Source: an uncultured Planctomycetota bacterium
GTDB lineage: Bacteria > Planctomycetota > Planctomycetia > Gemmatales > Gemmataceae
DNA length: 64,000 bases
Direction of reading: 5' to 3'
Assembly (NCBI GenBank): GCA_963849325.1
Contig: CAWKHF010000002.1
Span: 320,001 to 384,000, forward strand
The position numbers were made by a program, and so were the translations under genes. Positions 14,963 through 25,133 of this stretch are shown piece by piece. Under the pieces are notes generated by a model. The model searched no databases, had not been told where the DNA came from, and was given only the letters and a program-made list of their open reading frames with translations. How positions within the stretch are numbered: position 1 is the first letter of the stretch; each line of letters opens with the position of its first letter.

Positions 14963-14978
14963 GGAAGGTCGCCGCATG

Positions 14979-16886: not shown

Positions 16887-17084
16887 CTAGTGGGGCACGG
16901 TCGAGGCGCCCGGCGCGGGCGTCTCATTGTTCTTCAAGGGCAAAAGCTCCTGACGGTAGATCGGCACGTCACGCGGTGCCTCGATCCCCAGGCGGATTTT
17001 GCCCCGGTCGATGTCCACGACCGTGATACAGATGTTATCCCCGATATAAATCTTCTCACCCAGTTTTCGGCTCAGGACCAGCAT
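16887..17084 (-). CDS. csrA: Carbon storage regulator CsrA
   Basis: MLVLSRKLGEKIYIG...IRLGIEAPRDVPIYRQE; AGGAGG RBS. Confidence 0.97.
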   Translation of the reverse strand: MLVLSRKLGEKIYIGDNICITVVDIDRGKIRLGIEAPRDVPIYRQELLPLKNNETPAPGASTVPH

Positions 17085-24007: not shown

Positions 24008-24020
24008 GAACCTATTGTCC

Positions 24021-24070
24021 CAGCCGCTTGCGGCTTCGCGTATCGCTGCCCGCGAAGCCGCAAGCGGCTG
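24021..24070. repeat. REP-like inverted repeat family C (doublet)
   Basis: Perfect 20-bp arms 24021-24040 and 24051-24070. Confidence 0.9.
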
Positions 24071-24219
24071 TCGGGCTTCGCGATGGTAGCCCTTACATCG
24101 GCTGAGACGTTTTTACAAATCGCGCTCGCCGGCCTCCGTCGTTCCCCCGACGGCGAAAAAGAGCGAAGGTTCGGCAGGCATTCGAGTTAGAACACATTAA
24201 CACATTTGCACCCTTTCTC

Positions 24220-24235
24220 CGGCACGGGCCTTGCT
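24220..24235 (+). promoter_or_regulatory. Putative sigma54 (-24/-12) promoter
   Basis: CGGCACGGGCCTTGCT, exact GG-N10-GC; AT-rich AACACATT tandem repeat just upstream (24191-24206). Confidence 0.7.
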
Positions 24236-24245
24236 TAATGAAGAG

Positions 24246-24512
24246 ACGACCCGACCGATTGTGGAAGCGAGGGTCGGGTGCTCGCACGGTTAGCGAACGG
24301 TCTCCCCCACCGCTTCGCTCGCGGTATCCCCGTCCGTGCCGGGCCTGCGATGGTTGTCGGGAGGATCCCCCATCCTCTCGACATAGATCAGCGCGGCGCC
24401 CACCGAAGCGAGTACACCGACAACGCTTCTCTCATCCCCCTCCCTCCTTTTTGGCAAGTCACCGAACCCCCTTGAAGCCCTCCGCTCCCCCGCGGAGGGC
24501 TTCCCTCTTTTC
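24246..24512 (+). ncRNA. Candidate sigma54-dependent C-rich small RNA
   Basis: Promoter, five hairpins plus terminator, six C4-5 tracts, no credible ORF. Confidence 0.55.
24474..24512 (+). terminator. Intrinsic terminator-like hairpin
   Basis: Perfect 12-bp stem 24474-24485/24492-24503, loop TCCCCC, followed by CCTCTTTT. Confidence 0.7.
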
Positions 24513-24685
24513 CGCTCGCCGCACTTCGGAAAAGTGTATGCTTCCTCCGGCCGATCCGCGCTGGTAGAATGTGGCCTAGTCGCTTCGATCCGAAGATCGG
24601 AGAACACGGGACTCTTATCGACCTTGCGGAGCGTCGTCGCGCGGCCGGAAGAACGGCCGGCGCCTCCGACACCGATCCACGAACC

Positions 24686-25133
24686 ATGAATTTTCAAATT
24701 GACGTCTCTTCCGCCCTGCCGTGCCCCCCGGCCGACCTCCCTGCCACCTCCACCGCCGTACCGGAAACGGTCGATCTGCTGCGTCAGATCCTGGAGGTGC
24801 AGCGCGAGCAATTGTCTTACCAGCGGGCTGCCGCCGCGGCGCATGACGTGACCGCCCGCTGGCGCGCTCTTCCTGTCGCGCTGGCAGCAGGACTTTCCCG
24901 ATCTGGCCGAGGGCTGCCGCAAAGCTCTGCCACACCTGGAACGCAGCTATGGCCAACTTCTCCGCGACCTGACCGACAAGCTGACGGAAGAAGAGCACGG
25001 CCTGGATAACGACTTCACCCTACAAGAGTTCCTCGACCGCTTTGGGATGCGCCTCGCCCAACTGGGCACCATCCTCAACCTGGTCGCTCCCCTTGCGGAA
25101 GCCGCCGGCTCGTCGTCGGGCGAATCGGCGTGA
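24686..25133 (+). CDS. Helical hypothetical protein (frameshift near 24870)
   Basis: MNFQIDV...LLRQILEVQREQL joins FLSRWQQDFP...LQEFLDRFGMRLAQLG; extended -10 TGGTAGAAT at 24562-24570. Confidence 0.7.

Follow-up and report, generated by a model that had tools for sequence, protein, structure and literature searches.

A conserved, structured small RNA gene with a sigma-54-type promoter and six C-rich motifs in the Gemmataceae

A stretch of DNA from an uncultured member of the Gemmataceae (Planctomycetota) raises the question of whether a gap between its protein-coding genes encodes an independent small RNA (sRNA) and, if so, what such an RNA would do. An earlier note, made from the letters of this stretch (64,000 nt; hereafter the window), had proposed a trans-acting sRNA with a sigma-54-dependent promoter, a series of hairpins, six C-rich motifs and a terminator. 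It had also named what would count against this proposal, that is, a promoter, stems and C tracts that are not conserved in relatives, a conserved open reading frame that explains the region, or, against novelty only, a match to a known Rfam family; all of these checks that were run came out in favor of the sRNA. Conservation, a covariance model and the fold define a gene of ∼265 nt at 24246–24512 (+ strand; predicted +1, A24246), which we designate type 1, and we are highly confident that it is a real sigma-54 sRNA gene. The whole statement, that is, a stand-alone structured sRNA gene plus pairing of its C-rich motifs with mRNAs, is one toward which we lean with modest confidence.

The proposed −24/−12 promoter, cGGCACG-GGCC-TTGCT (cGGCACGGGCCTTGCT; 24220–24235, + strand), is present at the coordinates first given for it. 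Its GG and GC doublets are spaced by exactly 10 bp in a TGGCAC-N5-TTGC context, as expected for sigma-54. It is the sole exact match to GGCACG-N4-TTGC across the window; when one mismatch is tolerated, the window contains 7 matches vs 9.2 expected. In the whole genome, 52 exact matches occur vs ∼33 expected (by arithmetic from a G+C content of 64.9%), so the motif alone is weak evidence and the weight rests on conservation: of 41 homologs, 39 have YGGCAY-N5-NTGC in their upstream region, and the promoter lies 26–27 nt ahead of the start of the covariance model (vide infra) in 34 of the 41, with a 4–5 nt spacer that varies freely. Counting 12 nt past the −12 C reproduces the predicted start, A24246. 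The genome encodes one rpoN (a single Sigma54_DBD match, 196.6 bits) and contains 23 matches to Sigma54_activat, at least 14 of which are near full-length (199–248 bits); no activator gene is located beside the type-1 RNA at any of the 32 loci inspected. A tandem repeat of AACACATT that had been described ahead of the promoter does occur in two copies (24191–24206, + strand), where it forms an A+T-rich spacer between the promoter and an upstream element, but it is not conserved in the 10 genus homologs.

The upstream element itself, ATGGTAGCCCTTACA...TTTTTACAA (24083–24121, + strand), was recognized in an alignment of the genus and by comparison across genera, and is a candidate enhancer or activator-binding site. 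In the window its core is TTACA-N16-TACAA (24093–24118); its general form across loci is (A/T)TTACA, 16–18 nt, and a T-rich TACAA. The loose pattern TTACA-N16-18-TACAA is found at 32 of 39 promoter-bearing loci but in no control window (0/39, with shifted windows or the opposite strand as controls), and in 29 of the 32 positive loci the element starts 125–131 bp (about 128 bp) ahead of the promoter GG. Genome-wide, the strict pattern has 10 matches; with the relaxed pattern, the element is located upstream of 10 of 594 promoter-like sites, three of which belong to C-rich RNA genes and the other seven of which lack the layout. The fixed phasing, ∼−150 from the start, has the look of a site for an enhancer-binding protein, and we regard it as a candidate for one; the element also resembles a −35/−10 pair (nTTACA, 16–18 nt, TACAAn), and a weak pair of this type is the alternative.

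The borders of the gene are apparent from its conservation. BLAST identifies a single copy in its own genome and homologs in all 10 other genomes of the genus (69–81% identity); among 30 more distant genomes none gives a full-length match, and two other genera give short matches to the terminator region only. When the flanks are included in the alignment, similarity upstream is low save for the promoter hexamers, begins abruptly at GACCCGACCGA (24248) and stops past the T tail. From an 11-sequence MAFFT alignment (81% mean column identity), RNAalifold derives a consensus of 59 pairs with compensatory changes in 15, and the covariance model built from this alignment recovers 24246–24514 in the window with 257 bits. 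In a second alignment, of 41 covariance-model matches aligned to the model, two-sided changes are found in 55 of the 59 pairs, and 89.9% of cells are paired vs 36–44% when the partners are slid (0/500 shuffles as high); the pair counts in this alignment are inflated because it is fitted to the model, and the independent MAFFT alignment agrees in direction.

The plus strand (24246–24515) has a predicted folding energy of −123.9 kcal/mol vs a shuffle mean of −93.7 (z = −5.79; 0/200 shuffles as good). In the 41-sequence alignment, helices longer than two pairs number eight; each is 76–99.5% paired, and in each at most one pair lacks compensatory changes. The inner helix of P1 (two pairs) has one compensatory pair. 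P1 (24249–24257/24271–24279, loop AUUGUGGAAGCGA; 8/9 pairs compensatory in the 41 sequences) is followed by P2 (24280–24285/24408–24413), which closes a multi-branch domain (24280–24413) that contains P3 (24292–24301/24309–24319, loop CUCCCCC), P4 (24320–24324/24334–24338, loop UAUCCCCGU), P5 (24346–24350/24391–24395) and P6 (24355–24365/24372–24383, loop UCCCCC), each on the plus strand and each supported by covariation. Six hairpins had been drawn from the single sequence; those at 24249–24279 (P1) and 24355–24383 (P6) and the terminator are retained, but for those at 24282–24296, 24309–24325 and 24405–24429 the covariation backs P2, P3, P4 and P5 in their place. Between the multi-branch domain and the terminator is a 61-nt linker (24414–24474, + strand), predicted to be single-stranded, with CGCUUCU (24424–24430), CAUCCCCCUCCCUCC (24434–24448) and GAACCCCCUUG (24464–24474); within the genus its segments CGCUUCUC, AUCCCCCUC and GAACCCCC are maintained, and they can be recognized in most of the 41 homologs.

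The 12-bp terminator with a UCCCCC loop that had been proposed was also found by a terminator scan (stem 24474–24503 with 12 pairs, 9 of them G-C; loop TCCCCC; tail CCTCTTTTCC), and it covaries. As an intrinsic terminator of 11–12 bp it comprises 24475–24485/24492–24502 (+ strand), the loop UCCCCC and the tail CCCUCUUUUCC, extending to 24512; 10 of 11 stem pairs have compensatory changes and 99.5% of cells are paired (41 sequences). The tails of the homologs are T-rich, and the terminator loop is C-rich (at least four consecutive C) in 35 of 41.

If the functional transcript came from the opposite strand, its loops would read GGGGGA, which contains GGA, and it could then be a CsrB-like sponge for CsrA, for which the genome has nine matches, one of them in the window 7 kb away; no CsrB-like RNA is known for this group. 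We consider this highly improbable: the plus strand carries both the T tail and the conserved sigma-54 promoter, the minus strand has no T run beyond P1 and its fold has a z of only −1.82, and the paired cells contain 149 G-U vs 88 A-C, a modest excess in the direction of the plus strand.

The P1 loop contains GGAAGCG (24263–24269, + strand), which is complementary to the linker segment CGCUUCU (24424–24430) and provides the first strand of a candidate pseudoknot. At least seven contiguous pairs can form between loop and linker in 33 of 40 homologs, with a mean of 6.95 vs 5.05 for shuffled linkers. Concerted changes of the two strands are seen in homologs L042, L045, L039, L035, L034, L037, L040 and L022; the combinations found across genera include CAGCGUG/CACGCUG, GGAAGUG/CACUUCC and GGAAGCA/UGCUUCC. 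Only 11 of the 40 homologs are individually significant (p ≤ 0.05), so we grade the support that these sequence comparisons give to the pseudoknot as moderate. If formed, it would probably fix the geometry of the RNA or gate the adjacent linker seed (vide infra).

Could the region instead encode a small protein, for example, from the ORF at 24238–24567 (109 aa) or the minus-strand ORF at 24290–24922? Open frames do occur in G+C-rich sequence. However, the alignment has 81 internal gaps, of which 48 measure 1 nt, 31 measure 2 nt and only 2 measure 3 nt; with 79 of 81 gaps of 1 or 2 nt, the coding interpretation fails. In addition, no plus frame of genus genome G004 stays open for more than 56 codons, the unconserved ATG at 24238 precedes the predicted +1, and there is no Pfam match. 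No conserved ORF explains the region, and we assign the small protein next to no probability.

A cis-acting leader or attenuator of a downstream gene requires somewhat more discussion. In 4 of 11 genus loci the next gene, in the same orientation, encodes alanine dehydrogenase, and a sibling RNA (type 4, below) precedes an operon. Nevertheless, the 64 ORFs that flank the RNA at 32 loci represent many unrelated families and are located on both strands, often opposite to the RNA; because the neighbors vary from locus to locus, the RNA is best described as a gene in its own right, not as a leader. The RNA is closed by a strong, conserved terminator, and the next ORF in the window (24686–25009) has a third-position G+C of 0.58 (the cut-off for our crude gene calls was 0.78) and no Pfam match. 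A leader is, therefore, very unlikely. The proposal of an independent gene is thus upheld: promoter, stems and C tracts are kept in relatives as the neighbors change.

C makes up 39% of the RNA and G 26%; the RNA contains five runs of at least five C in 269 nt vs 0.55 per kb in the genome (P = 0.0046 against shuffles of its own composition), and no run of four or more G. The six C tracts listed in the earlier note (24304, 24328, 24367, 24436, 24467 and 24487) are all present and predicted to be unpaired, with P(unpaired) of 0.78–1.0 vs 0.37 for the whole RNA. Among the 41 homologs the tracts are conserved in the loops and the linker; across genera the UCCCCC loops persist and the stems drift.

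The description of these motifs as anti-Shine-Dalgarno-like is only approximate: the conserved motif is UCCCCC and not CCUCC, the core of the 16S anti-Shine-Dalgarno sequence and the canonical 16S 3′ end of this genome, and UCCCCC fits G runs better than it fits canonical GGAGG. In the regions from −16 to −6 relative to crude starts (n = 3513), AGGAG is enriched 6.1-fold, GGAGG 3.8-fold and GGGGG 1.9-fold; GGGGGA is enriched 2.8-fold and occurs at 22 of the 3513. Ribosome-binding sites in this genome are thus mostly canonical, so UCCCCC would suit the G-run sites (GAGGGGG) of a minority of genes. In two members of the genus the linker has CCUCCUC in place of CCCCCUC; either can pair with GAGGGGG. 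A scan for seed matches gave 5–29 genes per set of 8-mer seeds, a noisy and uncontrolled count based on crude gene calls in one genome. At the starts of its nine csrA paralogs the genome has canonical AAGGAGG-type sites and no G runs. Neither Hfq nor ProQ was found in the genome, which is rated 84.69% complete.

By analogy with characterized sRNAs, the C-rich motifs probably pair with G-rich sites in mRNAs. In Xanthomonas, sX13 has three C-rich apical loops on stable stems, does not require Hfq, and represses by means of its C-rich motifs and G-rich motifs near the translation starts of its targets; in its host, G-rich motifs occur at the ribosome-binding sites of 5% of genes (PMC3771888). In Actinobacteria, likewise high-G+C hosts, the C-rich loops of 6C bind several mRNAs by G-C pairing independently of Hfq and ProQ (PMC6486639). 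In rhizobia, several hairpins of NfeR1 (αr14) display the same ultraconserved, unpaired pyrimidine motif on stems that diverge, and three copies of this motif serve, redundantly, as seeds for pairing with translation-initiation regions (PMC10746234).

The type-1 RNA shares with sX13 both the C-rich loops and a minority of genes with G-rich ribosome-binding sites; it differs in its six motifs, multi-branch core, candidate pseudoknot and siblings, and Rfam models detect no similarity between the two, provided that the release includes a model for sX13. The length of sX13 is about half that of the type-1 RNA, and, to our knowledge, sX13 has no sigma-54 promoter. From 6C the type-1 RNA differs in phylum, size and promoter type and in how many motifs it carries. 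The NfeR1 motif, CCUCCUCCC in three hairpins, is a true anti-Shine-Dalgarno sequence, in contrast to UCCCCC, and the NfeR1 promoter is of sigma-70 type with sites for LsrB and NtrC, in contrast to sigma-54 here. The type-1 RNA would be a further independent instance of C-rich loops in G+C-rich, apparently Hfq-less bacteria.

On this basis we suggest that the six unpaired UCCCCC-type motifs (four in hairpin loops, two in the linker) would serve as redundant seeds that pair with GGGGGA or GAGGGGG at or near the ribosome-binding sites of several mRNAs and alter their translation or stability; the pairing would be Hfq-free and proceed through G-C-rich duplexes.

To look for sibling RNAs, we scanned the genome for the upstream element in combination with the promoter, and for terminators whose loops are C-rich. 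Three further sigma-54 RNA genes with the same layout were identified (C6:545444; C2:73914, minus strand; C7:∼72380, minus strand), each with a related upstream element, a promoter and a C-loop terminator. Judged by sequence, the type-1 RNA is thus shown to be one of four sigma-54 RNA genes in the genome, and two of the others are also rich in C tracts. Type 2 (C6:∼545468–545650, + strand; ∼185 nt) is C-rich throughout, is found in 3 of 10 genus genomes and scores 30.7 bits with the type-1 model; type 3 (C2:∼73900–73625, − strand; ∼275 nt) is also C-rich throughout, is found in 8 of 10 and scores 17.5 bits; and type 4 (C7:∼72365–72085, − strand), with a C-rich 3′ end and a conserved purine-rich core, is found in 8 of 10 and scores 10 bits. 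Because their scores with the type-1 model are low, we regard the siblings as distinct types. None matches an Rfam family at gathering level (the best is mmgR, 21 bits vs 41). C or G runs also cluster at 27 other places in the genome; apart from the two known RNA genes, none of these has an upstream sigma-54-like promoter.

The sibling set also bears on a different function for the motifs. CsrB and RsmZ titrate CsrA, and CrcZ titrates Hfq/Crc; in the same manner, six UCCCCC motifs could act as a decoy that titrates a C-rich-binding protein or a G-rich regulatory RNA. Six short repeats placed in loops and linkers, and siblings that share the motif and the promoter layout but little else (30.7, 17.5 and 10 bits), are the hallmark of protein-sequestering RNAs, and they fit such a decoy equally well; the poor match of the motif to the canonical ribosome-binding site also favors it. 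However, no C-rich-binding protein is known or was identified here, CsrA proteins, of which the genome has nine paralogs, bind GGA and not C tracts, and the characterized sRNAs with C-rich loops considered here (sX13, 6C and NfeR1) all act by base pairing. We therefore consider the decoy unlikely and favor pairing with mRNAs.

Which regulator would control such RNAs? On the same strand directly after type 4 are genes encoding a 488-aa histidine kinase (two transmembrane segments, HisKA, HATPase_c) and then a response regulator with the architecture REC-Sigma54_activat-HTH_8; the order type-4 RNA, kinase, regulator is found in the 3 genus genomes in which the domains were checked. We compared 30 loci in other genera that encode homologs of the kinase. 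With at least 57% identity, a sigma-54 promoter is located 387–592 nt upstream in 5 of 8, two lack it (G004 and G075) and one is incomplete; at 42–53% identity, it is found in 1 of 22. The element upstream of type 4 (TTGTAACAA-like) is a variant of that of the other types. The candidate regulator scores 304 bits with the NCBIfam GlrR model, which has a cut-off of 763.

In Enterobacteriaceae, the glmY gene, with its sigma-54 promoter and activator sites, is located directly upstream of the genes for QseE/QseF (GlrK/GlrR), which control it (PMC8745638, PMC6075780). The order type-4 RNA, kinase, regulator is a glmY-qseE-qseF-like arrangement, so we propose, from its adjacency to one sibling, that the kinase–regulator pair activates all four RNAs; the likeness concerns that sibling, whereas the type-1 RNA has no such neighbors. 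In this scheme, an enhancer-binding response regulator of the NtrC family, for which the one encoded with the two-transmembrane kinase just downstream of type 4 is the best candidate, would bind the element ∼128 bp before the promoter and switch on transcription. GlmY is a protein decoy for RapZ (PMC7073468), not a C-rich pairing RNA, unlike our interpretation of type 1.

Qrr genes are sigma-54-driven, and their RNAs are ∼100 nt and Hfq-dependent, with a conserved seed that is not C-rich. The sibling sRNA genes Qrr1-4/5 of Vibrio are under the control of LuxO, an NtrC-type response regulator (PMC2632942). As in the Qrr/LuxO system, in which the regulon consists essentially of sRNAs, we find sibling sigma-54 sRNA genes with a candidate upstream site, for which the regulator here is a proposal; Qrr and the type-1 RNA have no homology. 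A broader proposal, possible but doubtful, is that one envelope-spanning kinase and its NtrC-type partner drive a sigma-54 regulon made up almost wholly of sibling sRNAs, an independently invented circuit like Qrr/LuxO or GlmY/QseEF, and that, throughout the family, its C-rich, multi-seed RNAs are the main regulators that act Hfq-free and post-transcriptionally on G-rich start regions. What emerges is an RNA gene family of high confidence, for which the promoter type and a fold are defined and a sensor–regulator pair is proposed, and the suggested circuit (kinase to sigma-54 activator to four RNAs) is testable.

Searches of Rfam 15 with the 64-kb window gave no match at gathering score, so no known family accounts for the type-1 RNA at threshold; this negative extends to the Qrr, GlmY/GlmZ, CsrB/RsmZ, RsaE and sX13 models insofar as the release includes them. 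The best match is 6C (RF01066; 28.5 bits vs gathering 47, E = 0.099), which covers only the terminator hairpin (24463–24507); ar14/NfeR1 (RF02344) scores 17.2 bits vs gathering 58.8. The earlier note knew of no such RNA in planctomycetes, and our search of the literature, supplementary files being outside its scope, likewise found no description of a small regulatory RNA from planctomycetes, of this kind or another. Both ingredients, that is, sigma-54-driven sRNAs and sRNAs with C-rich seeds, are well established, and the RNA is not of a new kind; its novelty lies in how these ingredients are combined, in its size, in its six motifs and candidate pseudoknot, and in its siblings.

The distribution searches used strict filters and many of the genomes are incomplete, so a genome without a match is to be read as one in which the RNA was not found and not as one from which it is absent. 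The sister family, the only other family of the order, gave no covariance-model match in 15 genomes, and six loci taken from the matches listed in public genomes for the degenerate pattern GGCAYR-N5-TGC-N10-16-GACCYGAYC (chance matches occur in many phyla) gave none. Within the family, 50 of 151 sampled genomes have a match to the model, spread over 36 of 90 genera; among the high-quality genomes the figure is 23 of 88. When the sampling was order-wide, 22 of the family's 135 sampled genomes had a match. The model thus already detects the type-1 RNA in a third of the family genomes searched. A search of sequencing runs listed no RNA data set with this sequence; the one run found, a soil library (X1) labeled metatranscriptomic but flagged ‘probably DNA’, yields two short contigs on the body of the RNA (word depth ∼42), which come from relatives and, as contigs, are uninformative on transcript ends, strand and level: one of 168 nt covers 24283–24450 with 8 differences, and the other, of 239 nt, fits 24259–24325. 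As a separate observation on the neighborhoods, PSCyt1/PSCyt2 domains adjoin one of the homologs.

The open reading frame bounding the gene-free gap that holds the type-1 small RNA gene (window 24246-24512, plus strand) lies at 24686-25009 on the plus strand. Its third-position G+C is just 0.58, under the cut-off of 0.78 that we used for crude gene calls, and it has no Pfam match. This ORF is unlikely to be a gene, and the non-coding sequence around the RNA may therefore reach ~25220. In four of the 11 genomes of the genus (loci L004, L007, L008, and L009), the RNA is followed by a same-strand alanine dehydrogenase gene and, in three of these four, preceded by an aldo/keto reductase gene; the upstream ORF at L004 has no Pfam match. 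At the other loci, the neighbors of the RNA vary.

Upstream of the RNA in the window, just 3' of the hydrolase gene, is a long, near-perfect palindrome (24020-24075; core GAAGCCGCAAGCGGC), with a second window site at 14978. The 15-nt core occurs 42 times across the source genome and is also found 5' of type-1 homologs from other genera (L038 and L041); the palindrome looks like a REP-like dispersed element.

The type-4 sibling RNA is located on contig C7 of the same genome (~72365-72085, minus strand; 6086-6400 in L170, the locus extracted from this region), 5' of the histidine kinase-activator operon. In this position, a purine-rich core, GGGGCUGGAACAGAAGAGGC, is conserved in five genera (L170, L176, L177, L179, and L180), together with additional GGA/AGAGG-type motifs; outside the source genus, the type-4 RNA is not C-rich. 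The type-4 sibling may belong to a different functional class, that is, an operon leader or a GGA-bearing RNA. Immediately after the activator gene, an exact GGCACG-N4-TTGC match (C7:68689, minus strand; L170 ~2690) is followed by an ORF of 185 aa that has no Pfam match. The gene 3' of the type-2 sibling (C6:545700-546300) starts with MAFSSSLDPVSIRPEVLAFFRDIKEHPDDDTPRLVFADWLQEHGD, as read from the DNA, and appears to resemble TIGR02996, the repeat-companion family of paralogs in Gemmata.

The source genome contains nine CsrA-family matches, one of which (window 16941-17084, minus strand) is ~7 kb from the type-1 RNA. Another of the nine, at C5:320684-320836, lies ~15 kb from rpoN; an enhancer-binding protein has its AAA+ domain encoded at C5:319577-320068, ~600 bp from this copy. 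All nine CsrA-family genes have canonical AAGGAGG-type start regions.
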